Positions 26,067-59,807 of a stretch of 64,000 bases of DNA are shown in pieces. Origin of the DNA: an uncultured Gammaproteobacteria bacterium (GTDB lineage Bacteria; Myxococcota_A; UBA796; JAJRTE01); the NCBI GenBank assembly GCA_964418585.1, contig CAYQMG010000089.1, positions 95,185 to 159,184 on the forward strand, read 5' to 3'. The position numbers were made by a program, and so were the translations under genes. The notes under the pieces were generated by a model. That model worked only from the letters and a program-made list of their open reading frames with translations, had not been told where the DNA came from and did no database searches. The first letter of the stretch is position 1. The number at the start of each line of letters is the position of its first letter.

Positions 26067-26149
26067 CTGTTCCGATCTCCAGGTGGCAGGAGGTTGGCGC
26101 GGCCATCTGTCCCGCACCGGCGCAAGTTCTCATGCTTCCGGGTGCAACG

Positions 26150-26246
26150 GCGCCCGCGTGCACCACTATCAGCTTCCGGGTGTGGTGTCAATACATAAAT
26201 TTCAGTAAATTCCGAAAATCGAGCAGAAAGAACATCACACCGGGCA
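26150..26246 (-). promoter_or_regulatory. AT-rich island with candidate promoter/operator for the regulator-efflux operon
   Basis: gtgtcaatacataaatttcagtaaattccgaaaatcg: minus-strand TTGACA and direct TAAATT repeats in an otherwise GC-rich genome. Confidence 0.3.
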
Positions 26247-29200
26247 TCAGGAGAGGTCGATGTAGCAGTAGACGGGGAAGGGAGAGGCCGGGCGGATTCG
26301 CCAGGAGGTGGTGTGCAGCGTGTGCGCCTGGTTCACCGGGTGCTGATTGAAGTCGAAGCGAGGGTCGTGAACGGAGAAGAAGGCCACGCCCTGGTCCAGT
26401 CGGAGGGTGAGGCGTCGGTTCGGGTTGGACCACAGGATTTCGAGGGTGCGGTGGTGAGCGAGTTTTCGAGGGTGGTCTACCAGTTGGACCTGTGTCTTGG
26501 GGCGGAGGGTTGCGAGGAGGGAGGAGAGGACCTTTTCCTGGGTGGTTGGATTGGTCCAGTCATGGTGGATGAGTCTTGGGGAACGCCAGCCATCCTGCTG
26601 GACGGCGGTGGTGATGATTGAGAGGATGGTATCGGACGAGAGGGTGCCGAGTTTTTCGAGTCCCTGAAGGAGGAGGAACAGGCCGAGCGTGGAGAGTGGG
26701 CTTTTGACGTACCGGTCGGAGTAGGTGACCCGGCGTGCCGGGCCGGCCTGGAGTGCTCTGGCGGTACCGGGGTGAGTTTGTTGGACGAGTTTCCAGAAGT
26801 GGTGAGCGAACCGGGTACGGTTGTGGAACATGGGGTTGTCGTGGTTGATGACGAGTTCGTGCACGGTGCCCGGATCGGGGGGTTGGAGCTGGTCGGGGGA
26901 GAGTGGAGAGAGGTCGTCCGGGAGTGTCGGTGAGTTCAGGGTTGCGTGCACATTGGTGGCGTCCTGGCGTGTGTCGAGCCATGCGGGGCCTGGGAGGAGG
27001 GCGGCGTGGTCGTCGGTGGCGAAGGCGGTGACGGTGTCGTCGTGGTGGAGTTCTGCATAGGTTATTGTGGGGCTGTCGTTTTTCTGGTTGTGTTGGAGGA
27101 AGAGGTGCAACCTGGCGAATTCTGCGAGGTTGGCGAGTTGCCGACGGGTTTGCCAGTCGGCCTGGTCGAGGGCGGATGGGGGGAGGAGGAGGTCCACCTG
27201 GGTACCGGATTCGGCCATGTGGAGGAGGACGTGTCGTGCGTTCCAGGCGCCGAGGTCCCAATCGGCAGGGTTTCCCTGGAGTACGAACCGTGCTCGAGTC
27301 AAGGGGTGGCGCAGTACGACGCGCTGGATGGCCTGAATGGGGGATTGCCATTCCACGGTGGTGGCGTCTCCAAAGCACTTCAAGTCCTGAGGGAGTTCCA
27401 GCGCATGGAGCAACCGTTCGGAGAGGAATGTACGCGCTCGGTGCCGGTTGAGTTGTTTTCTTTCGTGCTGGGTATCGTGTCCGAGGAGGCAGGCGTGGCA
27501 GGCGGCGTCGCAGTGGTTGGGGCAGTCGAGGCGAGCGCGTGCGGCCTTGAGCAGGTGTGTGAGCATGGCCGGTGCCTCGGCGCAGAATCCGGCGCCGCCG
27601 TCGGCGGTGTCGTAGAGGATGACGGCCAGACAGGTGTGTGCTCCCTCGCGCCCGTGTGCCACGGTGCAGCCGATTTCCTCCTCCTCGACGCCCAGGGTTT
27701 CGGCGAGCGCGAGTTTCAGGGCCACGGCGATGGTGATGGCCTCCGATTCCTCCTGGAGCGGCATGCCGGTATGTGGGTTGAGGAAATGGAGTTCGAGCAC
27801 GTCGGTGATGGTGGTGGAGCCCAGGGCCAGGTGTCGCTTGATGGCGAACGGTTCCCCGTTGCCCTCGCAGAGGATTTCGGGGCCTTTTCTTCCGGACGAG
27901 TCGCGTCCTCCTCGCAGGCGTTTGTGCTGGCGCATGGCCTCGGGCAGTTCGGCCGAAGCCGGATTTTCAGGGTCCCAGGGCTCGGAGACGGTTCGACCGC
28001 ACCGGAGGCAGACGGCATAGCCGTGGCCGTGGGCACCGTGGCTGAGGTGGATGAGTTTGCCGTTGGGCGCGTGACGGAGGCGCACGACAGGGGGAGAACC
28101 GAACGGGACGAACGGGTTTTCTCCTGATGAGATCCAGGATTCCAGGGGGGGCATCCAGGGTTTGGCGCCCAGTTCCGTGCTTGCCTTGGAACGGATGTCG
28201 ACGGCAAAGCCGGAGGGGATGAGGAACTGGCGGTGGTGCAGGTTGGAGGAACCGCAGCAGGGGCAGGATTCCACCCAGGTGCGGCCAGCGGTGACCCATC
28301 CACACTGGAGGCAACGGGAACCCACCTGCAGGTCCTGGAGTTCGTTGATCAGATTCTCTGTGGCCTCTGGCGGGATGTGCCAGTTGAGGGTGACTCCCGC
28401 CGACCGATAGGCTCGACCGTCCAGCACCACTTCGAGCCCCGGTGCATATTCGTTCAAGGCCATTCGGAGTTCACGAGTGGGATAGCCGCGCAGGAGCGCC
28501 AGGTTGTCCTCTCGTTTTTCTGACGTTCGTTCCGGCCTGCTCGGGCGCCGACCTCTCTTCCTTCGCACCGCGAGTTCCTCGGCGGTGGTGGTGACGAAGG
28601 GGACCACGTTGGTGGGGAAACCATATCCAGGAAGGAACTGCCGTGTGGCAAGGTAGCCCAGGAGATACTCTTCCCGGTGGCGTTTCAATTGGCGCTGGAT
28701 GGCCAAGGCCACCGGTGAGCCATCCCGGTCTTCGGGTTCCAGCGCGTTCCATTCGGTTTGGAGCCCTTCCAGCGTGTTCAGGTATCCCCTTCGGGCCGCG
28801 TGCATGGATTCGGCCACGTCTTCCAGAAGGTCCTCGATGCGCGTTCTCTCCTTTATCGACCGCCTTCGCAGCACCTCGAGCCGGTATTGCAACTCGTCAC
28901 GAGCCGGTGCGGTTGCCTGGAGATACTCGAAAAACCGGTCGCATACGGAAGGGGCTTCTGAGTCGGCCTCGAAGAACCAGCCGCAATGAAGCTTTGGGAT
29001 GGCCTTGTCTCCGGCCGCCTGGTACTGAAGAAGGAAGTCGGTGAGACAGACCGCGTTCACGTGTCGCTGCACGATGGGTCCACTGTCCAGGCATACGTCG
29101 GTGACGTGGAGCGGCGTGGTGAAGGGCCACAGGGGATTGCGGAATACGGCCTGGTCGTGGGGAAGGTTGCGGCACACGGTCACGCTCACCGCTGTTCGTT

Positions 29201-32200
29201 CGCCTCGACGACCGGCCCGACCCACCCGTTGGAGGAAGTTGGCCGGGTTCGGGGGGGCGTTGTTCATCGACACCGCGGACAACCCACCGATGTCCACTCC
29301 GAGTTCCATGGTGGTGGAACAACTCAGCACATTGATGGAGCCGGCCTTGAACTCACGTTCGTAGCCCTGCAACGTCCCTGCAGGAAGCTGGGCAGAATGC
29401 TCGGCGACCCGAAAATAAAACCACCCCTCCACGATTCGGTCGGTAACCTCGTGCCACACACCGGCGCTCCGGAGTTGCCGCACCTGTTCGTCTTGGGCCA
29501 GCCATGCCCGGATTTGTTCGAGGCTCCAGGGCGTTCCGTCAAAAGCCCGTTTGAAGGCGAACGGGGGGCGGGGCATGGTGACCTTGACACACCGGGTGTC
29601 GTACGCCCAGGGGTCATTGGGTTGGAGCGGTGTGTGCCCTCGCAACGTCGTATCCAGGAGTTGGCCGGTCAGTGGGCAGATCCACGCCTCCTGGATCGGC
29701 TCGAGACATGCCTGTCGTTCCAGGTCGAGCTGGTATCCATCCTGGGTCTGGTGCAGGAGTCGGCGGATGGCTTGCCAGGCTTCGTGGAGAATCTCGTTCA
29801 CCTCCTCGCGGGTTTCCCTGTCGGAACCGAGACCGAAAGCCTGAACCAGGAGGGCGGCGAGGCGCGGTGGCCGGGCGGCCGTCATCCACTGGGGCCACGG
29901 TGTCCGGTGCCGCTCTCGTTTCTCGCCCTGGGGCAGGAGGTAGCTGGGACGGATCCGAGTCCCCATCCAGCGGAACAGCGCCGGTTCCATGGTGAGCGCG
30001 GTGTTGGCCCGAACGAAGAAGTCGAGACAGAGTTTCAGGAAATCCCGCCATGTCTGGAGTGTCTCGCCTCGAGCTTTCCAGGCAGCCGGAACACGGGTGA
30101 TCCGGGTGAGGCCGGGGTAGGTGAGTTTCACGAGTCCCAGGGTCTCCAGTGCGCGTCGGCGGGAAGGTCTCCGGGCGAACTCCCGCACGACCAGGCCTCG
30201 CGCCAGTGCTTGATGGTCCAGGTCGAAGGGATCGTAGGTGCTGCGCGCTGCGTGCATCCAGGAGATCTCCCGTGTTTTCGAAAGTTCCTGGATGGCGGTT
30301 CGGAAGCAGAGAGGTTCGGTCTGGGACAGGCTGTCAATCTCCTGGCGGAGTCGCTCGATGGTTTGGTCGAGCACCGTTCCACGGTCGCCCAGTTCTCGCT
30401 GGAGGGCGAGGAGGCGTCCGAGTTCCGCCTCTTTTTCCTCTCTTTTTTCCTGTTGGTCCGCCTGAGAGGTCCCAGACGTCGCAATGACCTGGGCGTAAAG
30501 AAAACTCCGAACGTAGTTGCGTTCCGAATCCCGCTGGGCCGCCGCTGCAAATCGGGCTGTGCCCTGGCGGCTGTCCGAGAACGTGATGAGTCGCCGACCG
30601 TCGGCGGGGCACCCGTTCCCGGTACGGTCGGCCGGGACCCATTCGAGCAGCCCAGGAAGGACCACGCTCTGGGTGAACTGGATGGCGTTTCGGAACGTTT
30701 TCCAGAAAGGGCGGAGGGACGGGCCCTTGTGGAGGCATCGCGGGCACTGAAGAGGTTCGGAGGCGGATTCCAAAGATTCGAGCACCAGGAAACGGGGGCC
30801 CGGGGTTCCCAGCTCCCCTGTTTTTGGATCGAGTGTTTCCAGGTCCGGAGAGGAGGGGTCTGGGGGCGGTGCGAGCAGGGCCGTGGCGTGGTGTTGGAGC
30901 GGAAAGTGCAATTCGGTACCCATTGGAGTGTCGGCAGGGTGTTCCGGTGCGGGGGACTCGTCGTCTTCTGGAGCGAACGGATCTTCCTCGTCGTCGGTGG
31001 CCGTGTCGCCCCGGTCCGGTGGGGGGCTGTTTGGAGGAAGGAAGCGGTCGGTGGCGTCCTGCTGCACCACGGTTCCTGCCAGGAAGATCTGGCTGCAGGT
31101 GTTGCACAGGACCAGTTCATACACGAGCGAGCCACAGGCCTTGCAGGTGTGGCGTTCGTTGAAGTAGACCGTTCCAAAAGGCCATTCCGAGGACTGGAGC
31201 GGGCGGTGCGTTTTCCCCGGGCACGCCGGGTTGATACAGGCCCAGAGCCCGGGCTGGGTCCGGGCAAACAGGTGCAAGCGTAGAGGCAGGAACGGGGTGC
31301 CATCCGGGCCTGTCGCGCTGCTCAACAGGTCCAGGAACCGGACGGTCTGCTTTCGGGCCTCGGTTTGCTGTCGTGCCGAAGGGCCGAACAGGGTCTGCGT
31401 CAGGTCCGAGAGGCGGGCGGGTCCTCGGGAGACGAAAGCGCTTCGAACCGTCCGTGCTGGGAGGGAGGAACAGAGTTTCTCGTAGCGTTCGTCCTGGGTA
31501 AGCGCGGAGAGGGCGTCCAGGTCCGGGAACGTGGTCTCGAGCGGGTCTTTGTCGGGTAGCCTCGGAATGTCGTGCCGACCCAGCACCACGTGGACCTGAT
31601 GATCCGGTTGGCCCGATACCGAAGCCAGGAAGCGCCGCAGCGCCTCTTCCGGGGTTCTCCCGTGGCGATCCTTGCCCTGGGACGCGATGGTGGCCGAGGT
31701 GGCGATGAACCGGACGTTCTCGGCCCGGACTTCGAAGGCGGTGAGCACACGACGAAGCAGGAGCGCCAGTTCCGCGGCCTGTGACCCCAGGTAGGTGTGC
31801 GCCTCGTCGATGACCACGTATTTGAGTCGGCCCCGGGAAAGCTCGAGGATCGGATGGTCGGCTGGACGAACCAGCATGTATTCGAGCATGGTCGCATTGG
31901 TGAGGAGGATGGGAGGAGGCGCTTTTCTGAGCGACTTGCGGTCCAGCACCTCCTCGGGCCGGTGGCGCTTCTCCGATTCCGGCAAATGGTCCGGGGTGTT
32001 GCCGTTGTAAAGGCAGAACCGAACCGTGCCGTCGAAGCCTCGAGTCCAGGCTGCCAGCCTGTCCTGCTGGCTGTTGATGAGCGCGTTGAGTGGGTAGAGA
32101 AACAGAGCCTGGACTCCGACCAGCGGCCGTCGCCGGTGCCTCGCCTGGAGGGCGAGATCGTTGAGAATCGGGATGAGGAAGCACTCGGTCTTCCCGCTAC

Positions 32201-32621
32201 CCGTGCCTGCACTCACGACCACTGACCGGGGCGGGTCACTCATCAGGTGTCGCCAGGCCTCCCGTTGGTGCAGGTAGGGGTGGATCGATCGCGCCAGTCG
32301 CTGCTCCCGCAGCGTTTCCGGCGGGCTGTCCAGGTAGGAGACCAGGGTGGCATCGAGTTCTCCCGTGTCGGCGAGGTCCTGGAGTGTTTCCGGGCCGGTC
32401 CGGTGGCCGAACTTGGCCTCGAACACCGGGTCGGAGAAGAGCGCGTTCTCGGTCCCGGGCGCGTGTTCGTAGGTGTCGGCGAGGAACTCCCTTAGGGGGC
32501 GGTTTCTGGGCGATAGATAGCTCAGCAAGGCCCGTCCGTACCGAGTGGTCAGGTTGTCCAGCAGGATGTTGAACTCGTTGGAACGCGATCGTTCGGAAGA
32601 AGGGAGATCTGGATTCGTCAT
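26247..32621 (-). CDS. Giant DExH-box SF2 helicase with Zn-ribbon insertions and DUF1998-like (MrfA-type Zn-binding) module; DruE-like
   Basis: Track ORF 26247..32666 (TTG) trimmed to ATG 32621 (MTNPDLPSS) preceded by AAGGAGAG. Motifs: Walker A SAGTGSGKTE, Ia YPLNALINSQ, II VVIDEAHTY, III ATSAT, VI QRVGRAGRRGE about 850 aa downstream; Cys clusters CINPACPGK...HTCKACG...CNTCSQ, CLQCGW...CPCCG, CLRCG, CPNHCDAACHAC; LPGYGFP and ILYDTADGGAGF as recalled for DUF1998. Confidence 0.85.
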   Translation of the reverse strand: MTNPDLPSSERSRSNEFNILLDNLTTRYGRALLSYLSPRNRPLREFLADTYEHAPGTENALFSDPVFEAKFGHRTGPETLQDLADTGELDATLVSYLDSPPETLREQRLARSIHPYLHQREAWRHLMSDPPRSVVVSAGTGSGKTECFLIPILNDLALQARHRRRPLVGVQALFLYPLNALINSQQDRLAAWTRGFDGTVRFCLYNGNTPDHLPESEKRHRPEEVLDRKSLRKAPPPILLTNATMLEYMLVRPADHPILELSRGRLKYVVIDEAHTYLGSQAAELALLLRRVLTAFEVRAENVRFIATSATIASQGKDRHGRTPEEALRRFLASVSGQPDHQVHVVLGRHDIPRLPDKDPLETTFPDLDALSALTQDERYEKLCSSLPARTVRSAFVSRGPARLSDLTQTLFGPSARQQTEARKQTVRFLDLLSSATGPDGTPFLPLRLHLFARTQPGLWACINPACPGKTHRPLQSSEWPFGTVYFNERHTCKACGSLVYELVLCNTCSQIFLAGTVVQQDATDRFLPPNSPPPDRGDTATDDEEDPFAPEDDESPAPEHPADTPMGTELHFPLQHHATALLAPPPDPSSPDLETLDPKTGELGTPGPRFLVLESLESASEPLQCPRCLHKGPSLRPFWKTFRNAIQFTQSVVLPGLLEWVPADRTGNGCPADGRRLITFSDSRQGTARFAAAAQRDSERNYVRSFLYAQVIATSGTSQADQQEKREEKEAELGRLLALQRELGDRGTVLDQTIERLRQEIDSLSQTEPLCFRTAIQELSKTREISWMHAARSTYDPFDLDHQALARGLVVREFARRPSRRRALETLGLVKLTYPGLTRITRVPAAWKARGETLQTWRDFLKLCLDFFVRANTALTMEPALFRWMGTRIRPSYLLPQGEKRERHRTPWPQWMTAARPPRLAALLVQAFGLGSDRETREEVNEILHEAWQAIRRLLHQTQDGYQLDLERQACLEPIQEAWICPLTGQLLDTTLRGHTPLQPNDPWAYDTRCVKVTMPRPPFAFKRAFDGTPWSLEQIRAWLAQDEQVRQLRSAGVWHEVTDRIVEGWFYFRVAEHSAQLPAGTLQGYEREFKAGSINVLSCSTTMELGVDIGGLSAVSMNNAPPNPANFLQRVGRAGRRGERTAVSVTVCRNLPHDQAVFRNPLWPFTTPLHVTDVCLDSGPIVQRHVNAVCLTDFLLQYQAAGDKAIPKLHCGWFFEADSEAPSVCDRFFEYLQATAPARDELQYRLEVLRRRSIKERTRIEDLLEDVAESMHAARRGYLNTLEGLQTEWNALEPEDRDGSPVALAIQRQLKRHREEYLLGYLATRQFLPGYGFPTNVVPFVTTTAEELAVRRKRGRRPSRPERTSEKREDNLALLRGYPTRELRMALNEYAPGLEVVLDGRAYRSAGVTLNWHIPPEATENLINELQDLQVGSRCLQCGWVTAGRTWVESCPCCGSSNLHHRQFLIPSGFAVDIRSKASTELGAKPWMPPLESWISSGENPFVPFGSPPVVRLRHAPNGKLIHLSHGAHGHGYAVCLRCGRTVSEPWDPENPASAELPEAMRQHKRLRGGRDSSGRKGPEILCEGNGEPFAIKRHLALGSTTITDVLELHFLNPHTGMPLQEESEAITIAVALKLALAETLGVEEEEIGCTVAHGREGAHTCLAVILYDTADGGAGFCAEAPAMLTHLLKAARARLDCPNHCDAACHACLLGHDTQHERKQLNRHRARTFLSERLLHALELPQDLKCFGDATTVEWQSPIQAIQRVVLRHPLTRARFVLQGNPADWDLGAWNARHVLLHMAESGTQVDLLLPPSALDQADWQTRRQLANLAEFARLHLFLQHNQKNDSPTITYAELHHDDTVTAFATDDHAALLPGPAWLDTRQDATNVHATLNSPTLPDDLSPLSPDQLQPPDPGTVHELVINHDNPMFHNRTRFAHHFWKLVQQTHPGTARALQAGPARRVTYSDRYVKSPLSTLGLFLLLQGLEKLGTLSSDTILSIITTAVQQDGWRSPRLIHHDWTNPTTQEKVLSSLLATLRPKTQVQLVDHPRKLAHHRTLEILWSNPNRRLTLRLDQGVAFFSVHDPRFDFNQHPVNQAHTLHTTSWRIRPASPFPVYCYIDLS

Positions 32622-32669
32622 CGTTCTCTCCTTTTCTGCGAGGAGACGGCCGGGTGAAAGGCGCAAGGG

Positions 32670-35600
32670 TCAGTCCGCCGCTGAACCGGAAGGGTAAGAT
32701 TTCTTTCGGCGCGTTCGTTTGTGCACCGCCACCGGACCCGCCCCAGCGCGTGCAGCGCTTGCTGGTTTGAAAGGACTCGGCTCGTTTTCCCACGGGGTTT
32801 CGGAGGGGAACGGAGGCAATTTCTCCTGGAACGCGGGCCATGGGCTTTTCCACCGTTCCCTGGCCAGCAGGATCAAGGCGAGTTGATATGCGGTTTCGAA
32901 GTATTCCGGATCGAATTCCTTGAACTCGCGGAGAAAGAAGATGACCCGGCGCTCGAGCCGTGTTCCGGAGACGGCCGCGGAGGCTGCCGCGGCCGGAGCG
33001 AAGACCACGGGCCTGGTGTAGCCGGGGACCAGATTCTTGTCGGTGAAGGGGGACAAGGGACTTTTCCCCAGCGGACCGTGTATGGCCTCTGTTTTCAGCG
33101 TGGTGAAAACCGGGCCGGCCGGGCAGCAGGGCCACTGGTCGGAAGCGTGGCGTTCGCGGAGTTCACGGACGGTATCCCGCAGCGAATCGTAGATGGGTTC
33201 CACCGGTCCGACACCACGGGCCGACAACACCTCGTTTTTCCGGCAGGGTGAATGCTGGATTCCCTCCTGTTCCGCCCACCTGCAGAATGGGATGGTCACC
33301 GTGGGAAGGAGGTTCTCCACCCGCTTGACGCCGTGGGTCAGGGTGCGCTCCACCAGGGTGGCCATCCCCGCGTCCCGGGCGTGCATGGCGGGTAGACAGG
33401 ATCGGTGGTATTGCTCGAAAGCGTTCTCCCAGGCGCCCAGGGGGACGAGTTCCCACATGAACGGGAAGCGCTCGAACAGGTCCCAGATGGCCTCGAAGTC
33501 AGGTTCGTGCATGGATCGAACCGCGGCCATGGCCACCACGTCGGGCATGTAGCTCATGCAGCGCAACACGTCGAACGTGGCGGGTGGGATGTCGGCGGCC
33601 ACCTCGAGGAACCCTGTGACGACGCGCCAGTCCTCGTCTCTCGGGTTGGCTGCCAGGGACCGGAGGGCCAGGGCGATGTGGTCCCAACGGGTTCTGGCAG
33701 GGTGTTGCTCCATGGCCGCAACCAAGGCACTGTCGACCCGGTCCAGGGTCTGTGAGACCCGGCCTGGAGGTTCGTCGACCGTCCAGGCGAGGGTGCGGCC
33801 TCGGTGCCACGCGCCATCTCGAGCCGTGATCAGCCAGGTGCCGGGTTCTCGTGATTCCGGTGCGAATCGCCAACGCGGTGTTCCGGCAGCGTCGTGTCCG
33901 ATGAATGGGAGCGTTTCCGTCTTGCTCACATTTTTCAGTGGTCGTGCCTCCACGGTCACCTCGTCGAGCGGTTGCCCGGTTGCGCCTGTCAGCACCACCT
34001 CCCCGCGGCTCGTGTCTCGTTGAAGGACCCAGTCGTATCGCCGGACCCGGATGCTGGTTCCTTGACCTGGCGTGCTGCCAACCTCGAACACCTGGAGGCG
34101 CACATCGGTGTCGTAGGTATCGCTCATTGCAAGCAGTCGCTCCACTGCCGGGAGCACGTGCCGGAGGGGGAGTTCGTGGAATCCCTCTCGGACTCGAGGC
34201 ACCGGTTGGGTGGTTTCCAGCCTGGTGCTGAGATCGGAACTGGACGCGGACAGGTAGTACCGTCCTGTGGTCGAGGGGGTGATGATTCGGAGGCGATGGC
34301 GTCCCAGTCTGGAGATGTGGATGGGGTGATCATGAGGGAGGGGGTCCGACTTTGCCGATTCGAACGAAGCCCGCTCCACAGGCCAGGGCAGACAAAGGTC
34401 GACCTCGGTCCCGAAATCGAGGCGCAGGTGAAGGTGCGGAAGGTGGGGTGCGACACAGGGCACGTGGACGGTGTGGCCCTCGTTGGTACGGGAGATGTAC
34501 ACGCCCTCGGCCGCGCGAACCAGGCCGACCCTTCGGAGAAAGCGGCTGGAGAGTGTGATTGCGCCGTCCCTCTCCCGGTCACCCACGGTCATGGTCCACC
34601 TGAAATCGGGAGGAAGAACGGTCAACCTATTCTCCCACGCCACCTCCTCCCTCTCTCCGTAGAGACGAAACCGGAGCGTCCCGAACAGGGTTTCGTCCCA
34701 CGGGCGCCAGGATCCATCGGGGTGCCGGACCCGGATCCTCTGGGTGTTCACCGGCGCACGTCGGGCCGAACTCAGGGTTCGATACAGGTCGGGCAGCCCC
34801 AACCAGAGAGTGCTTGAGGTGTCCGGAAGGTCGAGTCGCGCCCCGGAGAAGCTGTACTCCCCTTCTTCGGCTTCGGCCGCAGTGCGAACCCTCACCTGGT
34901 CTCCATTCCGGTGAAAGGTCACGTCCCCCTGGACACGGTAAGCCGTCCTGTCCAGGGGGGCGCCCATGAAGGATGCACCGACCCCCTGGTACGTCTTCGG
35001 AGACCAGTCTGCGCCGGCCAGCACCAGGACCTCCTCCGAGCGCACCTTGCAACTCCCCGTGGCAAGAAGCTCCCACGCTCCCGGTGCTTGCGTATCCTGG
35101 CGGAAGGTCCAGGGAAGGTCAGGGAGTGCCGAGGCCCCCTCGAGCCCGGCGACCTTGGCCAGCACCTCGCTGCCACTGGAAATCTCGAGCAGAATCTCGC
35201 CTGTTTCCTCGAGAACCAGCCCACGTGCTCCGGTGGTGGTCAAGATCCAGTAGGGATTGCCCTGCTCGTGTCGACGGAGGAGCCGGCCGTATGCAGCGAC
35301 CTCGGAGTGTTCTGGAGAGTACATACGGAGTCCCAGGCGTCGCGAGCCAGGGTCCAGCTTTGTGCCGAGAAAGGACTCGAGCACGGCCGGCTCGATGCGT
35401 CGCGCGGCCGACAGGCGTCGTTCGAGGTGCCACTTACCGTTGCGCTCCACCAACCAGGTCGCCATGCGAATCCGGTCCTTCGCCCCGCGCGCCACGTCGC
35501 TCGCCGTGGATACGAGGCCGCGCAGAAACGCCAGGGCCGTGTCGTTTTCGAGCAGAATGGGCATGGTGTCCCGCCAGGCGGGATCATGGAGGTCCAACCA

Positions 35601-36242
35601 GGCGACCGGGTCCTGCTTGTCGTCCAGGGGGTAACGGGAGCGGAGGGACCAGACCTGGGCTACCAGGTCAGCCGCCAGCGCCTCGGTCTCCTCGCTTCGA
35701 AGGGATACCGGCAGCAGGTGCGCGCGGTCCGCCGCCACCTGGAACAGCTCCTCAGACGATTCGGTCCCGCCGTATCCGTACACGCGGAAATCTTCCATGA
35801 TCGCGCGGAAGTAGGCGTGTAGCTTCGACCCCTCCTGTTGGAGCAGCTTCAGGGGCATGCCGCCCTCGCATGCGATGGTCACCAGGTAGAGTTGCCTTCC
35901 GTTTCGGGACAGGACAGGCCTGTCCCACCGTTCGAGCCCGGTCCGGATCACGGCAACCAGTGTGCTCCAGTTCCATTGCTCCTTGCCAATGCTGCATTTG
36001 AGTCCATCCCAGGACCATGCACCGTGCTCATGACGTCGTCGCCACCACTCGGCACCCGCGAGACAGATCATGGCCGCCTCGTCAGGTGAGATCCGGGTGG
36101 AGGGCAGGGAAGACAGCCGCGCACGCAGTCCGGCCAGGATGGCGTGCCATTCTTCCCGGGTACACCGGTAGGCATAAAGCGGACGCCCGTCCGGTTCGGG
36201 TGGTCTGTCCACGTGTCGCTCCAGAAACTCTCTCAGCTTCAT
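32670..36242 (-). CDS. Giant (~1190 aa) protein of unknown function, operon partner upstream of the helicase; DruH-like by position and size
   Basis: Track ORF 32670..37925 trimmed: its upstream 560 codons are antisense to the aldehyde dehydrogenase gene. ATG 36242 (MKLREFLERH) preceded by AAGGAGGGAG; alternative ATG 36374 (MQVLSAG) also has GAGGAG. No recognisable catalytic motifs. 48-bp gap to helicase start. Confidence 0.65.
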   Translation of the reverse strand: MKLREFLERHVDRPPEPDGRPLYAYRCTREEWHAILAGLRARLSSLPSTRISPDEAAMICLAGAEWWRRRHEHGAWSWDGLKCSIGKEQWNWSTLVAVIRTGLERWDRPVLSRNGRQLYLVTIACEGGMPLKLLQQEGSKLHAYFRAIMEDFRVYGYGGTESSEELFQVAADRAHLLPVSLRSEETEALAADLVAQVWSLRSRYPLDDKQDPVAWLDLHDPAWRDTMPILLENDTALAFLRGLVSTASDVARGAKDRIRMATWLVERNGKWHLERRLSAARRIEPAVLESFLGTKLDPGSRRLGLRMYSPEHSEVAAYGRLLRRHEQGNPYWILTTTGARGLVLEETGEILLEISSGSEVLAKVAGLEGASALPDLPWTFRQDTQAPGAWELLATGSCKVRSEEVLVLAGADWSPKTYQGVGASFMGAPLDRTAYRVQGDVTFHRNGDQVRVRTAAEAEEGEYSFSGARLDLPDTSSTLWLGLPDLYRTLSSARRAPVNTQRIRVRHPDGSWRPWDETLFGTLRFRLYGEREEVAWENRLTVLPPDFRWTMTVGDRERDGAITLSSRFLRRVGLVRAAEGVYISRTNEGHTVHVPCVAPHLPHLHLRLDFGTEVDLCLPWPVERASFESAKSDPLPHDHPIHISRLGRHRLRIITPSTTGRYYLSASSSDLSTRLETTQPVPRVREGFHELPLRHVLPAVERLLAMSDTYDTDVRLQVFEVGSTPGQGTSIRVRRYDWVLQRDTSRGEVVLTGATGQPLDEVTVEARPLKNVSKTETLPFIGHDAAGTPRWRFAPESREPGTWLITARDGAWHRGRTLAWTVDEPPGRVSQTLDRVDSALVAAMEQHPARTRWDHIALALRSLAANPRDEDWRVVTGFLEVAADIPPATFDVLRCMSYMPDVVAMAAVRSMHEPDFEAIWDLFERFPFMWELVPLGAWENAFEQYHRSCLPAMHARDAGMATLVERTLTHGVKRVENLLPTVTIPFCRWAEQEGIQHSPCRKNEVLSARGVGPVEPIYDSLRDTVRELRERHASDQWPCCPAGPVFTTLKTEAIHGPLGKSPLSPFTDKNLVPGYTRPVVFAPAAAASAAVSGTRLERRVIFFLREFKEFDPEYFETAYQLALILLARERWKSPWPAFQEKLPPFPSETPWENEPSPFKPASAARAGAGPVAVHKRTRRKKSYPSGSAAD

Positions 36243-36506
36243 CCCACTCCCTCCTTGGACGGCACGCGCCTCGACCACCCCGGGACCGGTCCGGGCCGGG
36301 GGGGCTGAAGGCGGGAAAGCGTGGTATTCCCCACCACCTTGCGCCCTGACCGGTCCCGCGGACAAGACCTGCATGGTCTCCTCTTTCAGGTATTGGCGAT
36401 CAGCAACGAGGAACTGACATCGACCGGCGCACCAACTCGAGTTTGACATCCCGGAGCAGGCTGACGAGAATAGCGAAGCGTGCTCGTGTGAAAGGAGGCC
36501 TCCGTC

Positions 36507-37946
36507 ATGTTGAAGGAATCGTATCCGTGCTACGTGGCCAACCAGCCGGTGACTCCGAACCAGGACCTCGAGGTACGAGACAAGTACTCCGGCCAGACCG
36601 TGACTCGGGTCCCCCTGGCCGGACCGGATCTCATCGAAACCGCCATCGGGAAGGCAGCAGCAGCCGTCCCGGCGATGCGGGAACTGCCTGCCTATCGTCG
36701 GGCCAGTGTCCTGAACCACTGTCTCCAGAGGTTCGAGGAGCGCTTCGACGAACTCGCCATCGCACTCTGTGTGGAAGCCGGAAAGCCCATCCGGGACGCC
36801 CGCGGTGAAGTGACACGGCTCATCGACACCTTCCGGATTGCGGCCGAGGAAGCTGTGCGGCTCAACGCTGATTTCCTCCCTCTGGACATCTCGCCTCGAG
36901 CCGATGGCTACGAGGGCATCACCCGCCGTGTGCCGGTCGGGGCCTGCGCGTTCATCAGCCCATTCAACTTCCCTCTCAACCTCGTCGCCCACAAGGTCGC
37001 TCCCGCAATCGCCGTGGGATGCCCGTTCGTGCTCAAGCCCGCCTCGTTCACCCCGGTCGGGGCCTTGATCATCGGCGAAATCCTCGCAGAGACCGACCTC
37101 CCTGAAGGCGCATTCAGCATCCTCCCCGCGCGGCGACAGGACGCATGGCCGCTGGTCACCGACGACCGGTTGAAACTCCTCTCCTTCACCGGATCCCCGG
37201 AGGTCGGCTGGTCCCTCAAGGCCCAGGCGGGCAAGAAAAGAGTCGTCCTCGAACTCGGGGGGAACGCCGGGTGTATCGTTGACGAGGGCGCAGACCTGGA
37301 ACGGGTCGCGGATCGGATTACCTTCGGCGCTTTCTACCAGTCCGGACAGTCTTGCATCAGTGTCCAGCGCATCCTGATCCACGATTCCCTCTACGATGAC
37401 CTCGTCCCCATGCTCGTGGAACGGGCACGCGCATTGAAACCTGGAAACCCTCAGCACGAATCGGTCTCCCTCGGCCCCATCATCAGCGAGGCGGACGCAA
37501 TCCGTATCGCAACCTGGATCGACGAGGCTGTACAACACGGGGCACGGATCCTCTGTGGCGGTCACCGAAACGGCTCGTTCGTCGAGGCCACGCTCCTCGA
37601 AAACGTCGACCCCAAGGACAAGGTGAGCTGCGCCGAGGTCTTCGGTCCCGTCGCCACAGTCCAGCGGTTCTCCAACTTCCAACAGGCCGTCCAGATCGTC
37701 AATGACAGCAGGTACGGACTCCAGGCCGGCGTCTTCACTCGAGACCTGAACCGGGCCTTCTACGCATGGAACCATCTCGAGGTCGGAGGCGTCGTCATCA
37801 ACGACATCCCGTCCATGCGCGTGGACAGCATGCCTTACGGCGGCGTCAAGGACAGCGGGCTGGGCCGGGAAGGGGTCCCCTACGCCATGGAGCACATGAC
37901 CGAGACCCGCCTGATGGTGCTCCATCGAGCGGGCCGACTGTCGTAA
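36507..37946 (+). CDS. NAD(P)-dependent aldehyde dehydrogenase family protein
   Basis: 479 aa; AAGGAGG RBS; ALDH signatures (FTGSPEVG, ELGGNAG, catalytic Cys in QSGQSCISVQR). Confidence 0.9.
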   Translation: MLKESYPCYVANQPVTPNQDLEVRDKYSGQTVTRVPLAGPDLIETAIGKAAAAVPAMRELPAYRRASVLNHCLQRFEERFDELAIALCVEAGKPIRDARGEVTRLIDTFRIAAEEAVRLNADFLPLDISPRADGYEGITRRVPVGACAFISPFNFPLNLVAHKVAPAIAVGCPFVLKPASFTPVGALIIGEILAETDLPEGAFSILPARRQDAWPLVTDDRLKLLSFTGSPEVGWSLKAQAGKKRVVLELGGNAGCIVDEGADLERVADRITFGAFYQSGQSCISVQRILIHDSLYDDLVPMLVERARALKPGNPQHESVSLGPIISEADAIRIATWIDEAVQHGARILCGGHRNGSFVEATLLENVDPKDKVSCAEVFGPVATVQRFSNFQQAVQIVNDSRYGLQAGVFTRDLNRAFYAWNHLEVGGVVINDIPSMRVDSMPYGGVKDSGLGREGVPYAMEHMTETRLMVLHRAGRLS

Positions 37947-39744: not shown

Positions 39745-41430
39745 ATGGCGGAGTATTGGGACAGCTTGCGAGATTCCGGGTGGACAGCGGGGGTGCTGTG
39801 TGCGTGGCTGGTCGTGCTCCTGCTACTTCCGGAGGCTGTCGGCGCGGCTTCGACCGGGGGAGGGGACCTGGAGATCATCGACTTGACCGGGGGTAGTGCT
39901 CGAGACCGTGCGGTCCGTAAGCTCGTCCGCATGCTCCCCCGGCGTGGAGTGGTGCTTCCTCCTGACGATACGTTGCTGGATGCGTGTCGTTGGGTGTCGG
40001 AAGAGGATACGCTGGCCTGCGCGGACCTCAAGGAGGTGCTCCTGGAGCGGATCGCCCGGGGCCGATGGGTGGTCGCGCCTCTTGGGCGGACGGTTCTGTT
40101 CGAAACCCTGGTACTTCAAGCCGAGGAGCAGCTCGCCTTCCTCGATCTGGACGGCGCACTGGAGACCGCAGCCTGGGTGCGCGAGTGGCTTCCGTGTGAG
40201 CAATCCCTCCTGTCTCACGAGGACATTGTTCGCTTCTTTCTGGTGACAGCTCTGGCGCACCTGTACCGTGGCGACGACGAGGCGGTCGACGCCTTCTTGC
40301 AGTTGTTGGTTGTGGAACCTGGGTTCCGTCTGCCGGGTGAAGTGCGAACTCGGGAAGCGCAAACCGCGTTGGCCAAGGCGCGGGCGCGGGTGGAGGCTCT
40401 GGAGCGGGTTCGGGTGGTGGTGGCTGACGGGGGTGGTGAGGTGGTCTGGGATGGTCGTGCCCGGACCGAACTCTACCCGGGGAAGCATGTGGCGCAGTTG
40501 AAGGCCGCCCATGGCGAGGTGAGAACGCGCTGGGTGGTGGTGGAGGATCCGGGCGGGGGGAGGTTCGAGGTGGATTTCGGGCTTCCTTCGAGGGAAGAGG
40601 CGCGGGCGCGTCTGGCCCGGCGGGTGGGCCGGGGCGACCTGGGCGAGCCGACTGCGGCCCTGCTCGCCTGGTACATGGGCCGACGGGGGCAGCGGGAGCT
40701 TTTTTTTCTGGCGCGTGATGCATGGACCGGCGAACTCGGCCTGTGGCGTTTCTCGCGAGAAGGAGGGCTTCAGCCGGTCGAGGAAGTGGTGGAAAAGGGA
40801 TTGCCGGGCACCGAGCTGACTCCTGGCGGCGAGGCCGGGCAACGGACAGCTTCTTCCTGGCGGATCGGTCTCGAGGCAGGAGCCGTGGCCCTTCTGGGCG
40901 GGGGGGTGGCCTTCCTGGCGGCCGACCGGGAGGCAGGGTTCTCCCTGGGGGTGGCCCGGCTGGGACCGCCTGTCACCATTGAGCTTCGGGGGGGATGGCG
41001 CCCCTATCGGATTGCAGCGGGAGCTTCCTCGAGTTCCTGTCCCCCCGCCCCTGGGACCGCGGAAGCAACCGACATCGCAGCGGTGGTCGCTTGCCTCGAG
41101 TCTCGAGCCGTTGCCGAACTGGGGCTGGGCGTTGGTCGTGCCCTGGCGGAGTCCGCTCGGATCCGGTTTGAGCCGGCCCTGTTTCTCGACCTGGCTCGAG
41201 TTCCGAATGTGGTGGTTGCCGACCCCTCCGGGGGACCCGTGTTGGTTGGAGATGCGGTCATGGGCGGGGCTTCTCTCCGATTCCGTTGCACGTTTGCCGT
41301 CTTTCGCAGACCCGGCTCTCCGGAGGTGGGGGTTGACGTTTCCGTTGGGGGGCTGTGGACGACGGCACAGGACCTGAACCTGGTCGCGACCACCGTGGGT
41401 TTGGCGGCGGTCGTGGACGTTCCTTTTTGA
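39745..41430 (+). CDS. Hypothetical secreted protein
   Basis: Track ORF 39664..41430; ATG 39745 (MAEYWDSL...VLCAWLVVLLLLPEAVGAAS) gives a plausible signal peptide; no recognisable domains. Start uncertain. Confidence 0.4.
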   Translation: MAEYWDSLRDSGWTAGVLCAWLVVLLLLPEAVGAASTGGGDLEIIDLTGGSARDRAVRKLVRMLPRRGVVLPPDDTLLDACRWVSEEDTLACADLKEVLLERIARGRWVVAPLGRTVLFETLVLQAEEQLAFLDLDGALETAAWVREWLPCEQSLLSHEDIVRFFLVTALAHLYRGDDEAVDAFLQLLVVEPGFRLPGEVRTREAQTALAKARARVEALERVRVVVADGGGEVVWDGRARTELYPGKHVAQLKAAHGEVRTRWVVVEDPGGGRFEVDFGLPSREEARARLARRVGRGDLGEPTAALLAWYMGRRGQRELFFLARDAWTGELGLWRFSREGGLQPVEEVVEKGLPGTELTPGGEAGQRTASSWRIGLEAGAVALLGGGVAFLAADREAGFSLGVARLGPPVTIELRGGWRPYRIAAGASSSSCPPAPGTAEATDIAAVVACLESRAVAELGLGVGRALAESARIRFEPALFLDLARVPNVVVADPSGGPVLVGDAVMGGASLRFRCTFAVFRRPGSPEVGVDVSVGGLWTTAQDLNLVATTVGLAAVVDVPF

Positions 41431-41437
41431 GCTTTCC

Positions 41438-43501
41438 ATGCGAGCGCACGTCCGACAACGTGGCTACGCCGCCCTTGCCTTGCTTCTGTCTGCATGTGTT
41501 CTGGACCCCGTCCCCCTGTTCGACCAGGACCGGGACGGCCTGCCCCTTGCCGAGGATTGCGACGATCAAGACCCGACCGTGGGCACCCGGTACCTGGACC
41601 AGGACGGTGACGGCCACGGCGACCAGAACGCCCGTCTCGAGTGCTCTCCTTCCTCGAGCGCCCTGGTGGCGGACGACTGCAACGACCAGGATCCGGCTGT
41701 GTACCCGGCTGCCGAGGAGGTGTGCAACGGTGTGGACGACGATTGTGACGGGCTCGTGGACGAGTCTCTGACGTTCGAGACCCTGTACCTGGACGAGGAC
41801 GGCGATGGGCACGGCGATCCGGAAACCGGCATCGAGACCTGTGGCGCTGTCGGTGATCGGGTCGAGGATGGAACCGACTGCGACGACGGTGATCCACTGG
41901 TGTACCCCGGTGCCGAGGAGGTGTGCAACGGAGTGGACGATGACTGTGACGGCAGGACCGACGAGGGCGTGATCGAGACCTACTATCCGGACGCGGACGG
42001 AGACGGATACGGGAAGGAAGGCGGGAGGCCCGTTCCGGCCTGTGCGCCGCCCGCAGGCCATGTCCAGGACGCCAGCGACTGCGACGATGCGTCGCCCACC
42101 ACCTATCCTGGGGCGGAGGAAGTGTGCAACGGTGTGGACGACGACTGCGACGGGGTGGTGGACGAGGAAGGAACCAGCGTTTACTACCAGGACCTCGATG
42201 GGGACGGTTATGGCGATCCCAACGTTTCAGTAGCCGCCTGTGACACTCCGTCTGGGTTCGTCTCCGACGCAAGCGATTGTGACGACACCCGGGCACTGGC
42301 ATATCCCGGCGCCAGCGAGACCTGCAACGATGCCGACGACGACTGCGACGGGTACGAGGATGAAGATGTGGCCATCGTGGCGGTTTCCGGGGGTATTTTC
42401 CACACGCTGGCGCTCTGCTCCGACGGAACCGTGTGGGCCTGGGGCAACAACGACCAGGGTCAGCTTGGGGACGGGACCCGGGAGGACCGTTCCTGGCCGG
42501 GTCGGGTGGAAGGATTGGACCACGTGGTGGCTGTAGCCGCGGGGGGGTACCATTCCCTGGCCTTGCGGCGAACCGATCAGGGGGAGACGTCGGTTTGGGC
42601 CTGGGGAAGCAACGATCACGGACAGATCGGGGAGGGGTGGGGTGAAGCAGCCGCCTATCCCGTCGAGTTGGAAGGTCTGGACGGCGTGGAAGCGGTGGCT
42701 GCCGGCGATGGATTCAGTCTGGTCTTGCGTACTCGAGCAGCCGGTGGCGCAGGTGAGGTTTGGGGTTGGGGGCGGAACGACCGCGGTCAACTCGGGGATG
42801 GAACCGGGCGGGATCAGGCTGCCCCGGTGCTGGTGGAGGGGCTTGTCGGCGTCGCCCGTATCCGTGCTGGGTCGGTTCACGTGCTGGCGCTCACCGGGCC
42901 GGACTCGGCTTTGCCGGGCCGAGTTTGGGCCTGGGGAGGGAACGATCACGGGCAAGTGGGCGATGGCACGGCCGAGGACCGGTGGCAGCCCGTCCAGGTT
43001 TCCGGTCCGGAGGGGGTGCTGTCGCTTGCCGCCGGGGGAGAACACAGTCTGGCCGTTGCGGGCGGGGAGGGGGATGGCGGCGTGTTGTGGGCCTGGGGGG
43101 ACAACACCTACGGTCAGCTCGGCGATGGGACCACGGTGGCGCGTCTCCGGCCGGCCCGGGTGGAAGGCGTCTCGCCTTTCCTGTTCGTCGCAGCAGGCTA
43201 CCACCATTCGCTCGGAATCGTTCTGGACGATACCGGGGCGACATCCCTCCTGGCCTGGGGGGGCAATAGCGAGGGACAGCTCGGCACCGGGACCACTTCG
43301 AGCAGTGACGTGCCCGTCCCGGTGCTTCTCGATGCGGGCGTGACGGTGCTGGCTGTCGGAGCGGCCCACAGCCTGGCGGTGGCTGACCCTGATGGGGGTG
43401 GGGCCGGGGGTCTGTGGAGTTGGGGAAGCAACGGTTACGGGCAACTGGGAGACGGCACCCGGGAGAACCGGCTCGAGCCGGTGGTCGTTGCTGGAATCTA
43501 G
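41438..43501 (+). CDS. Lipoprotein with tandem Cys-rich putative metal-binding repeats followed by RCC1-like repeats
   Basis: 687 aa; lipobox LLLSAC; about six repeats of CxDxDPxVYPGAEEVCNGVDDDCDG; then repeated WAWGxNxxGQLGDGT units typical of RCC1 beta-propeller blades. Confidence 0.8.
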   Translation: MRAHVRQRGYAALALLLSACVLDPVPLFDQDRDGLPLAEDCDDQDPTVGTRYLDQDGDGHGDQNARLECSPSSSALVADDCNDQDPAVYPAAEEVCNGVDDDCDGLVDESLTFETLYLDEDGDGHGDPETGIETCGAVGDRVEDGTDCDDGDPLVYPGAEEVCNGVDDDCDGRTDEGVIETYYPDADGDGYGKEGGRPVPACAPPAGHVQDASDCDDASPTTYPGAEEVCNGVDDDCDGVVDEEGTSVYYQDLDGDGYGDPNVSVAACDTPSGFVSDASDCDDTRALAYPGASETCNDADDDCDGYEDEDVAIVAVSGGIFHTLALCSDGTVWAWGNNDQGQLGDGTREDRSWPGRVEGLDHVVAVAAGGYHSLALRRTDQGETSVWAWGSNDHGQIGEGWGEAAAYPVELEGLDGVEAVAAGDGFSLVLRTRAAGGAGEVWGWGRNDRGQLGDGTGRDQAAPVLVEGLVGVARIRAGSVHVLALTGPDSALPGRVWAWGGNDHGQVGDGTAEDRWQPVQVSGPEGVLSLAAGGEHSLAVAGGEGDGGVLWAWGDNTYGQLGDGTTVARLRPARVEGVSPFLFVAAGYHHSLGIVLDDTGATSLLAWGGNSEGQLGTGTTSSSDVPVPVLLDAGVTVLAVGAAHSLAVADPDGGGAGGLWSWGSNGYGQLGDGTRENRLEPVVVAGI
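41549..42368 (+). repeat. Tandem coding repeats (Cys-rich CNGxDDDCDG units) within the lipoprotein gene
   Basis: Repeated ...gaggaggtgtgcaacgg(t/a)gtggacga(c/t)ga(c/t)tg(c/t)gacgg... segments; coordinates approximate. Confidence 0.6.
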
Positions 43502-43526
43502 GCTGTCCGTGGGAGGGCTCGCCAGC

Positions 43527-54540: not shown

Positions 54541-54599
54541 GGAAGGGTCCGGGCCGGCGGTTCCGGCCCCGGGGGCGAATTTCCCGGGAGGAGGTGACC

Positions 54600-56956: not shown

Positions 56957-57907
56957 ATGAGCGCGTGGAAAGCGAGGAAAGCGGACAGGGCGGCCGGGTG
57001 GGTCATGGCGGCCGTGGTGTGGCTGGTCGCGTCGTGGAGCAGTGCCGGGTGCCTGCAGCAGGAGGACCTCTCCGCGGACGTGCTGACCTCTTTCGAGGAG
57101 CCGAGCCCGGGCACGGCCGGGGCTTCCGGGGCGGCCGAGCATGTGACCGTGGCGCACCACCCCATGCCGGCCGGAGCAGCCGCCAATGCCGCCATCGAGG
57201 GGGTGGAGCCTGGCGCGTCCGGGAATGCGGAGGAGGCGAAGAAGGCAGAAGAGGGGGAGGGGGCGGAGGCGCAGGAGGCGGGGACCGGCTCGGCGGAGAA
57301 CATGGCCGGGGCGGAAGCGGGAGCCGATGCGTCGGGTGAAGGGGGGTCTGTGGCCGCCGCCGAGGCAGGGGCCAGCGAACCGGCGGTGGGGGTCCCCGAG
57401 TTTCACCCGCACCGGGAGATGCCGCCGGGCTATGGAAGCAGCCTGCCGCCGGACCCTCATCCCGAGGAAGTGCCGCCGCCGGCCGCCGAGGAAGCCCCCC
57501 CGGGCGCCGGTGCTCCGGGGGAACCCGAGAAGGTGAAGCCAGCGGTGTTGACGCCTTTTGAGCGCGATTTTGCCGGCCAGAAGTTCATCACCGTGAGTGG
57601 CACGATTCAGTACGAAGGAGAGCGGACCGCCACGGTGGACATCGACTGCTTCGTGACCGACACCTCGACCCGGGCGGGGCGCAAGCTCGTCAACAAGGTG
57701 AAGGTGGAAGGTCCGGGTCCCTACACCATGAAGGTCCCTGCCGACTACGGCGAATTGCACGTCACCGCGTTCATGGATCTGGAGAACGACGGGCCTGACA
57801 GCAAGGATCCACAGGGCAGCTACGAGCACAACCCCCTCGTCATCAAGGACGAGGATATCGAGAATGTGGACATCGTGCTCAAGCGTCGCACGGGCGCCGG
57901 GCAATGA
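56957..57907 (+). CDS. Lipoprotein with low-complexity Ala/Glu/Gly-rich linker and C-terminal beta-rich domain
   Basis: Track ORF 56924..57907 trimmed to ATG 56957 (GGAGG RBS); lipobox SSAGC; stop overlaps start of next gene. Confidence 0.45.
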   Translation: MSAWKARKADRAAGWVMAAVVWLVASWSSAGCLQQEDLSADVLTSFEEPSPGTAGASGAAEHVTVAHHPMPAGAAANAAIEGVEPGASGNAEEAKKAEEGEGAEAQEAGTGSAENMAGAEAGADASGEGGSVAAAEAGASEPAVGVPEFHPHREMPPGYGSSLPPDPHPEEVPPPAAEEAPPGAGAPGEPEKVKPAVLTPFERDFAGQKFITVSGTIQYEGERTATVDIDCFVTDTSTRAGRKLVNKVKVEGPGPYTMKVPADYGELHVTAFMDLENDGPDSKDPQGSYEHNPLVIKDEDIENVDIVLKRRTGAGQ

Positions 57908-59727: not shown

Positions 59728-59807
59728 CCGTGTGGGAGTCGGGGGGGCGAACGGTCTCCCGGAGCCTGGAGTCCATCCGCTTGCGGGCGTCGTGCGGTGA
59801 GGGTGCC

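Follow-up and report, generated by a model that had tools for sequence, protein, structure and literature searches.

Type III Druantia has been a named anti-phage defense system since 2018. Its two proteins, DruH and DruE, were dissected biochemically and structurally in studies from 2025–2026. Those of 2026 agree that DruE is an ATP-dependent 3'-5' helicase that dimerizes and engages single-stranded DNA (ssDNA) at junctions or forks, and that both genes are needed. Here we describe a druH-druE pair (druHE) in a 64,000-nucleotide stretch of contig CAYQMG010000089.1 (assembly GCA_964418585.1), hereafter the window. The pair is very likely an intact two-gene Druantia system of type III (III-A-like), with druH preceding druE and the two probably forming one transcription unit. 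A first-pass annotation, made from the sequence alone, had proposed a candidate type III-like system at this site. The assignment to type III stands, but the locus is of an already known, ordinary kind and is not a candidate for a new system: it represents a form of immunity that has already been described and recently dissected, here in a divergent version carried on an uncultured bacterium's chromosome.

The published accounts of this immunity differ in what they ascribe to each protein. In Pseudomonas aeruginosa, DruH was reported to be a 3'-5' exonuclease that licenses the PLD nuclease of DruE on forked DNA, and its C-terminal helical domain touches the DruE stalk (Loeff, Chanez and Jinek, 2026 preprint). 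One Escherichia coli study instead found the PLD-like domains to be dispensable and described DruH as a nuclease-free, ATP-inhibited ssDNA binder (Hu et al.). Another study proposes that DruH senses late phage proteins, with a nuclease activity that depends on the dimer. Work on the E. coli and P. aeruginosa systems describes a direct defense that does not kill the host, whereas the two-component type III system of Mycolicibacterium smegmatis, a high-GC host, needs DruH-DruE interaction and is reported to act by abortive infection and to be triggered by a phage minor tail protein (Li and He, 2026). We compared the M. smegmatis system by its description.

The two genes at 26247–36242 of the window are co-directional and lie on the minus strand, druH upstream of druE (Table 1). 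The open reading frame (ORF) listing, the translations and the Shine-Dalgarno sites bear out an initial description of two minus-strand genes, 48 bp apart and each with a strong ribosome-binding site, that together occupy ~10 kb. Given that both products have full-length, highly significant family matches, neither reading frame is there by chance. The start of druE is the ATG at 32621, although the maximal ORF opens at TTG 32666. Upstream, the druH frame continues without a stop to 37925 (1751 codons), which is 1,683 nt beyond the real start (36243–37925, minus strand). The extension is an antisense shadow cast by the aldehyde dehydrogenase gene on the plus strand, and the 1751-codon ORF is a high-GC artefact; this added part had no family match in the profile scan, and we rejected the maximal ORF as the coding frame. 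We place the druH start at ATG 36242 because the family profiles begin to match at residue 3–4 of the resulting 1190-residue product, because public gene calls agree, and because a Shine-Dalgarno sequence precedes it. The public metagenomic contigs (NCBI, ENA, Logan and JGI) have identical products of 1190 and 2124 amino acids called. An alternative upstream ATG at 36374, the end coordinate given in the first-pass annotation, would add 44 low-complexity residues without homology and was rejected; the size of ~1190 amino acids given there fits the ATG at 36242. Since the 48-nt spacer contains no terminator-like site, co-transcription of druH and druE is likely.

DruE matches the PADLOC profile for the type III protein (DruE3, PDLC00037) with 2054.6 bits, residues 14–2113 aligning to profile positions 3–2043 of 2055, compared with 543, 368 and 325 bits for the DruE1, DruE2 and DruE4 profiles. 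In the PDB, E. coli DruE (9tu7) was recovered with E = 0 and 1037 bits. Pfam recognizes the DEAD (82.4 bits), Helicase_C (44.3 bits) and MZB (42.5 bits; PF09369, formerly DUF1998) domains at the residues listed in Table 1. RecA1 and RecA2 are set apart by a ~750-residue zinc-ribbon/stalk insertion, whose stalk spans residues ~714–770, and the Cys clusters at 462/467/493/496 and 506/509/626/629 are invariant. These matches and the retained cysteines substantiate both the reading of this protein as a DExH helicase with Cys-rich zinc ribbons and a DUF1998 module and its identification as a type III DruE.

Conservation was assessed in an alignment of 117 DruE sequences, anchored on ECs_5260 of E. 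coli O157:H7 Sakai and extended with database homologues. The Walker A and DEAH (272–275) motifs and the published ssDNA contacts N179, R228, N242, Y248 and R252 all fall in nearly or fully invariant columns. The motif VI sequence QRVGRAGRRG is present, the invariant zinc-cluster cysteines are all kept (20 of 20), and the window protein departs from the family at only 7 of the 293 columns with conservation of 95% or more. Judged by its Walker A, DEAH, motif VI and DNA-contact residues, the helicase is predicted to be catalytically competent. The second PLD-like domain (PLD2) retains D1969-R1970-Y1971, H2056-x-R2058, D2076-x-G2078 and Q2098, with each column conserved in 112–117 of the 117 sequences. 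With both PLD-like domains in place and a conserved pocket in the last, the protein appears to fit III-A of the Koonin-lab subdivision, an assignment known from domain plan and pocket residues and not from placement in a tree. DruE variants of ~1690 residues (P0048, P0053, P0065 and P0067) end at window residue ~1743 and thus lack both PLD-like domains. They are 44–45% identical to the window protein, the same similarity as that of PLD-bearing relatives, so the presence of these domains varies among close DruE lineages.

The upstream product is DruH, the partner specific to type III, as had been suspected from the size and position of its gene. Thirteen PADLOC DruH3 profiles match it, the best (PDLC00049) with 307.7 bits over residues 3–1128; NCBIfam NF038336 (YjiT / STY4851-ECs_5259 family) gives 544.5 bits (cut-off, 150); and the solved DruH structure 9tud was found in the PDB with E 2.6e-34. 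No family was matched in the Pfam version searched, and the newer entries YjiT_N and YjiT_2nd are attached to an identical public protein. The AlphaFold2 model (mean predicted local distance difference test score, pLDDT, of 76) reproduces, as a prediction, the published plan of a helical domain, an immunoglobulin-like (Ig-like) region and a second helical domain. A Foldseek search of the PDB with this model returned only generic multi-Ig proteins such as DSCAM and ICAM-5, the kind of match that the P. aeruginosa study had also obtained; the library extended to 8 April 2026 and contained no DruH structure, so these matches support the Ig-like fold and not family membership. Over residues 1135–1189, the alignment columns of the disordered C-terminal tail are more than 70% gaps in the rest of a 26-sequence DruH sample, which includes ECs_5259 of E. 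coli O157:H7 Sakai. The tail is nearly unique to the window protein and is shared only in part with a sister metagenome-assembled genome (MAG), where the alignment stops at residue 1153.

Across the same 26 sequences, a cleft in the N-terminal domain keeps R20, R26, E65, R68, R69, W78, W106, L120 and T122, which correspond to R29, R35, E75, R78, R79, W88, W115, L129 and T131 of E. coli DruH (EcDruH). Mutation of E75, R78/R79, W88, W115, L129 or T131 in EcDruH, or of R22, K28 or E64 in P. aeruginosa DruH (PaDruH), abolishes defense. The mutated residues were mapped to the window protein by motif spacing; those of PaDruH, placed by spacing and not by alignment, match window residues R20, R26 and E65. 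In contrast to the cleft, the ATP/ssDNA pocket of EcDruH, which binds a nucleobase or ATP, appears not to be kept. Its residues Y670, N672, H689, Y733, R1031, H1062, R1064 and K1067 align here to Y663, S665, T678, F719, a gap, P1073, Y1075 and P1078, respectively. These columns are variable across the family sample, and the alignment is weak in this region (~18–25% identity); a family-conserved Arg, R1077 in the window protein, lies 1–2 positions from an aligned pocket column.

Type III Druantia of E. coli (EcDruIII; Sakai ECs_5259 DruH and ECs_5260 DruE; PDB 9tu7–9tuc and 9tud) has the same gene order and the same full-length domain plan as the window locus. The Walker A and DEAH motifs, the ssDNA contacts, the zinc-binding cysteines and the D-R-Y, H-x-R and D-x-G motifs of PLD2 are conserved between the two, at an overall identity of 34% for DruE and 18.5% for DruH. 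The E. coli genes overlap by one base, whereas those of the window are 48 nt apart, and the E. coli DruE dimer contact Y191 lies in an insertion found only in E. coli. The E. coli copy is part of an integrase-bearing element, SpLE6, and is described as standing beside Zorya II and ARMADA II on O-island 172; in contrast, no mobile element or other defense system was found near the window pair. The P. aeruginosa proteins share the architecture seen here: DruE comprises an N-terminal domain, RecA1, RecA2 with the INS/stalk, HTH, gate, DUF1998, OB and two PLD domains, and DruH a helical N-domain, six Ig-like domains and a helical C-domain. By motif spacing only, PaDruE D1917-R1918-Y1919, H1999 and R2001 correspond to window D1969-R1970-Y1971, H2056 and R2058, and PaDruE R1951 and S2022 are probably represented by T2004 and A2080.

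DnaE, encoded downstream of the pair, is at most 53% identical to homologues from named taxa (Desulfuromonas, Geoalkalibacter and Deferrisoma) among the matches listed, and 82–84% identical to those of three MAGs (GCA_024278455.1, GCA_027014035.1 and GCA_964516475.1). One of these sister genomes, GCA_027014035.1 (loci L004 and L091), also carries druH-druE. Its DruE is 56% and its partial DruH 42% identical to the window proteins, compared with 82% for DnaE, 87% for a kinase and 78% for AcrB among the neighboring products. This contrast suggests that druHE either diverged very fast or was acquired independently. In the sister genome (L004), druE is followed by genes for 323- and 772-residue proteins, to which no function is assigned and which have no counterpart in the window. 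Contigs of the closest relatives, those with DnaE identities of 82–84%, end inside the RND operon, and insertion versus core location was judged indirectly, by the identity contrast together with these downstream genes.

The druH-druE order recurs in loci L003, L004 and L005 and in E. coli Sakai (L007), such that the co-location of the two genes extends to relatives, one of the checks that the first-pass annotation had called for. Identities for DruE and DruH are 40% and 26% in Pseudenhygromyxa, which also has this gene order, and the closest other full-length DruH among 5.8 billion proteins is no more than 29% identical. Apparently DruH diverges faster than DruE, as published for type III Druantia. 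DruE relatives at ~40% identity are scattered over Alphaproteobacteria, Gammaproteobacteria, Geobacter and myxobacteria. Given the scattered relatives and the 56% and 42% identities against 78–87% for the neighbors, druHE shows the pattern of a fast-evolving, horizontally exchanged defense module; it is not conserved in the manner of a housekeeping locus. At the locus of the nearest full-length DruH (P0002, 29%; L003, 13705–20114), DruE is split into about five consecutive ORFs that carry DEAD, YjiV_N plus Helicase_C, DUF7130, MZB and other segments, either because the system is decaying or because the assembly contains frameshift errors.

By homology to the 2026 work in E. coli, P. aeruginosa and M. 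smegmatis, a plausible course of action can be sketched for the window system. DruE would rest as a dimer and would load onto ssDNA exposed at duplex junctions or forks by phage replication or recombination intermediates. It would then translocate 3'-to-5' with ATP, using Walker A K144 and the DEAH box, and unwind the duplex. Its partner DruH would sense infection, process ssDNA ends or do both, and would license DruE by touching the stalk of DruE. The phage DNA would finally be degraded, most likely through the PLD2 pocket (D1969/R1970/Y1971/H2056/R2058), or its replication would at least be blocked. Because the PLD2 pocket and the DruH cleft are conserved and the E. coli ATP pocket apparently is not, a helicase-nuclease model seems somewhat more likely for this locus than pure sequestration.

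The case for an intact type III system is built on family membership, gene adjacency and order, and conserved functional residues. Several points weigh against it or against parts of it. Expression, defense activity and phage targets of druHE are predictions, and the host belongs to an uncultured lineage without known phages. The published mechanisms are mutually at odds, both on whether the PLD-like domains and DruH are nucleases and on whether defense is direct or abortive. The PLD2 motif is non-canonical, with H-x-R and an Asp 18 residues downstream in place of HxK(x)4D, and the alignment shows a gap or other residues at the EcDruH pocket positions R1031, H1062, R1064 and K1067. Finally, the promoter and terminator scan found no sigma-70 consensus site on the minus strand for the druHE operon and no intrinsic terminator, terminator-like sites not being enriched over shuffled sequences.

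The same system might instead work without a nuclease. Following the E. coli model (Hu et al.), DruE would unwind phage DNA with 3' overhangs, DruH would sequester ssDNA as nucleoside triphosphate levels fall, the PLD-like domains would be structural, and host nucleases would finish the DNA. The lack of a canonical HxK(x)4D motif is consistent with this, as is the existence of the PLD-less DruE variants, which resemble the window protein as closely as PLD-bearing ones do. However, the 96–100% conservation of the PLD2 pocket across the 117 PLD-bearing sequences, the window protein included, speaks for a functional site under selection, and mutation of the mapped counterparts in P. aeruginosa abolishes both defense and nuclease activity. 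Moreover, the EcDruH ATP/ssDNA pocket appears not to be conserved in the window protein or in most of the sampled family members, and the ATP switch may therefore not operate in this system. We therefore regard a non-nucleolytic mode as unlikely, though it retains a real share of the probability. A different departure from the studied systems is suggested by DruH: because no other full-length homologue found exceeds 29% identity to it, the pocket residues differ at the aligned positions and its disordered Pro-rich/basic tail is unique, it could sense a different trigger or be regulated otherwise. That the window protein represents a functionally distinct type III sub-lineage, with another trigger or regulation (for example, without the ATP "metabolic switch") and chromosomally fixed without a mobile element in a deltaproteobacteria-like host, strikes us as rather improbable.

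Fragments of yjiT and yjiV are a described precedent in E. coli K-12 for remnants of this system. A domesticated or decaying remnant that no longer defends against phages, or one recruited to host DNA repair, would suit the housekeeping neighborhood (dnaE, RND efflux, aldehyde dehydrogenase and clpB), the lack of detected mobile-element marks, the host-like codon usage and the relationship of the helicase core to the repair helicase MrfA. This is very unlikely, given that both ORFs run uninterrupted over 10 kb with strong ribosome-binding sites, that essentially all family-conserved residues are kept, and that DruE and DruH differ from the sister genome far more than their neighbors do, as in an arms race and unlike a repair gene. 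MrfA/YprA of Bacillus subtilis (6znp) shares the superfamily 2 (SF2) core, the OB domain, the MZB/DUF1998 zinc module and the 3'-5' polarity. It has 751 residues, however, works in repair with the MrfB exonuclease, and matches window DruE over RecA1 only (E 7.7e-20); DruE has ~1,400 additional residues comprising zinc ribbons, stalk, gate and PLD-like domains. We give almost no credence to the pair being an Lhr/MrfA-type repair helicase, or a helicase of another YprA-family system (DISARM, Dpd, ARMADA or Druantia I/II/IV), beside an unrelated large gene. Weak partial matches to DpdJ, DrmA, BrxH, SngC, Cas3 and TIGR03817 do arise through shared RecA domains, but they span 70–230 residues with 25–126 bits, against the full-length DruE3 score. 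Scores also fall far below the model cut-offs (TIGR03817, 126 vs 874; TIGR04121, 87 vs 850; PRK09751 for Lhr, 33 vs 1496; DpdJ, 80 vs 800), and the upstream gene is a bona fide druH. The repair-helicase alternative raised at the outset is thereby disposed of, the identity contrast with the sister genome speaks against a core housekeeping locus, and the intact type III Druantia system remains our preferred reading.

Table 1. Coordinates of the druHE locus, its protein domains and adjoining features in the window.
Feature	Position	Strand	Evidence or remarks
druH (YjiT-family protein, 1190 aa)	32670..36242	-	PADLOC DruH3, NCBIfam NF038336, PDB 9tud; same call on public contigs
DruH N-terminal helical domain, residues 1-253	35484..36242	-	AlphaFold2; conserved R20, R26, E65, R68, R69, W78, W106
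DruH beta-rich Ig-like repeat region, residues 259-822	33777..35468	-	AlphaFold2 secondary structure; Foldseek
DruH C-terminal helical domain, residues 839-1132	32847..33728	-	AlphaFold2
DruH disordered Pro-rich/basic tail, residues 1134-1190	32673..32843	-	pLDDT <50
Shine-Dalgarno AAGGAGG of druH	36250..36256	-	7-nt spacer to ATG 36242; read from sequence
druH-druE spacer, 48 nt	32622..32669	-	no terminator-like site inside
Shine-Dalgarno AAGGAG of druE	32628..32633	-	6-nt spacer to ATG 32621; read from sequence
druE (YprA/MrfA-like SF2 helicase, C-terminal PLD-like domains, 2124 aa)	26247..32621	-	PADLOC DruE3, PDB 9tu7, Pfam
DruE RecA1, residues 118-314	31680..32270	-	Walker A T140-G-S-G-K144-T145, DEAH D272-H275; Pfam DEAD
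DruE RecA2 C-terminal part, residues 1069-1140	29202..29417	-	Pfam Helicase_C
DruE MZB/DUF1998 zinc module, residues 1632-1712	27486..27728	-	C1700, C1704, C1708, C1711; invariant 117/117
DruE C-terminal PLD-like pair, residues ~1745-2124	26250..27389	-	aligns to E. coli DruE 1654-2097
Divergent intergenic region druH / aldehyde dehydrogenase, 264 bp	36243..36506	.	inverted repeat 36278-36296/36343-36361
Aldehyde dehydrogenase gene	36507-37946	+	Pfam Aldedh 476 bits

The locus sits among housekeeping genes. Past a 180-nt spacer downstream of druE lie a MarR-type regulator, an RND efflux operon (OEP, MFP and AcrB) and then dnaE. Upstream of druH, on the opposite strand, are genes for the aldehyde dehydrogenase, a thioredoxin and a GT2 glycosyltransferase, and farther out are clpB, a sigma factor, a Mur ligase, an LD-carboxypeptidase, two Hanks-type kinases and an RCC1/MopE protein. 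PADLOC and Pfam were run on ORFs of at least ~130 amino acids, a scope that does not exclude smaller genes; among these, no integrase, transposase, methyltransferase, Zorya or ARMADA component and no other convincing defense protein was found in the window. The flanking ORFs contained no DruA-D, DruM, DruF, DruG, DrmB/C, MrfB or Dpd genes and, specifically, no MrfB-type exonuclease partner near druE. No tRNA or tmRNA genes and no Rfam matches were found in the window, and flanking direct repeats that could represent att-like sites were limited to short, chance-level pairs. GC content across the locus is 0.626–0.647, with 0.60–0.67 over the window and no compositional shift, and the codon usage of druH and druE falls within the range of neighboring housekeeping genes. 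The initial statements that no methyltransferase, nuclease or other defense gene is adjacent, and that tRNA, integrase and GC-shift signals are lacking, therefore hold within this scope.

Two Ser/Thr kinases, at 12986–15820 (minus strand) and 43392–45665 (plus strand), were considered as defense genes and rejected: their matches to PADLOC PD-T4-6/mad6/MkoA, of up to 239 bits, are generic to the kinase domain, and they lie at least 10 kb away. The first of them also carries PEGA and FGE-sulfatase domains. A 694-residue ORF at 8599–10683 (minus strand) combines a beta-lactamase/transpeptidase-fold domain (residues 12–363, 181.6 bits) with an AccD zinc ribbon/carboxyltransferase (439–652), a fusion that looks unusual if the ORF is real. 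Four plus-strand ORFs encoding 561–720 residues, at 39745–41430, 54594–56756, 57904–59727 and 59724–61847, matched nothing in Pfam or PADLOC; of these, the last three follow one another in the same direction. The 687-residue protein encoded at 41438–43501 (plus strand) has four MopE-type putative metal-binding motifs and seven RCC1 repeats, an architecture that we take to be associated with myxobacteria-like genomes.

Both the promoter region and the leader of druH presumably lie in the intergenic region that separates druH from the divergently oriented aldehyde dehydrogenase gene. Within the leader (36230–36420, minus strand), the two arms of the inverted repeat listed in Table 1 are 19 nt long and 89% complementary. 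The predicted fold has an energy of -89.2 kcal/mol (z = -2.3 vs shuffled sequence), and the Shine-Dalgarno sequence is partly paired in it. At the other end of the locus, the spacer that separates the end of druE from marR (26067–26246) is AT-richer and carries TTGACA at 26191–26186, followed by an inverted repeat CACCAC...GTGGTG that ends at 26161. These elements may be the promoter/operator of the MarR-RND efflux operon, which suggests that this operon is a transcription unit separate from druHE.

The window locus is otherwise an ordinary instance of a described defense system, and its recovery indicates that a reading of the sequence alone can pick out type III Druantia. It contributes a highly divergent DruH/DruE pair whose host belongs to a lineage that has been sampled little. 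Such pairs are useful for comparison, since the 2026 papers disagree about both proteins: the PLD-like domains form a nuclease in one view and are dispensable in another, and DruH is variously taken for an exonuclease, a sensor or an ATP-gated ssDNA binder. In the window pair, the PLD2 pocket and the DruH cleft are conserved but the E. coli ATP/ssDNA pocket apparently is not, which points to which features may be family-wide and which specific to E. coli.

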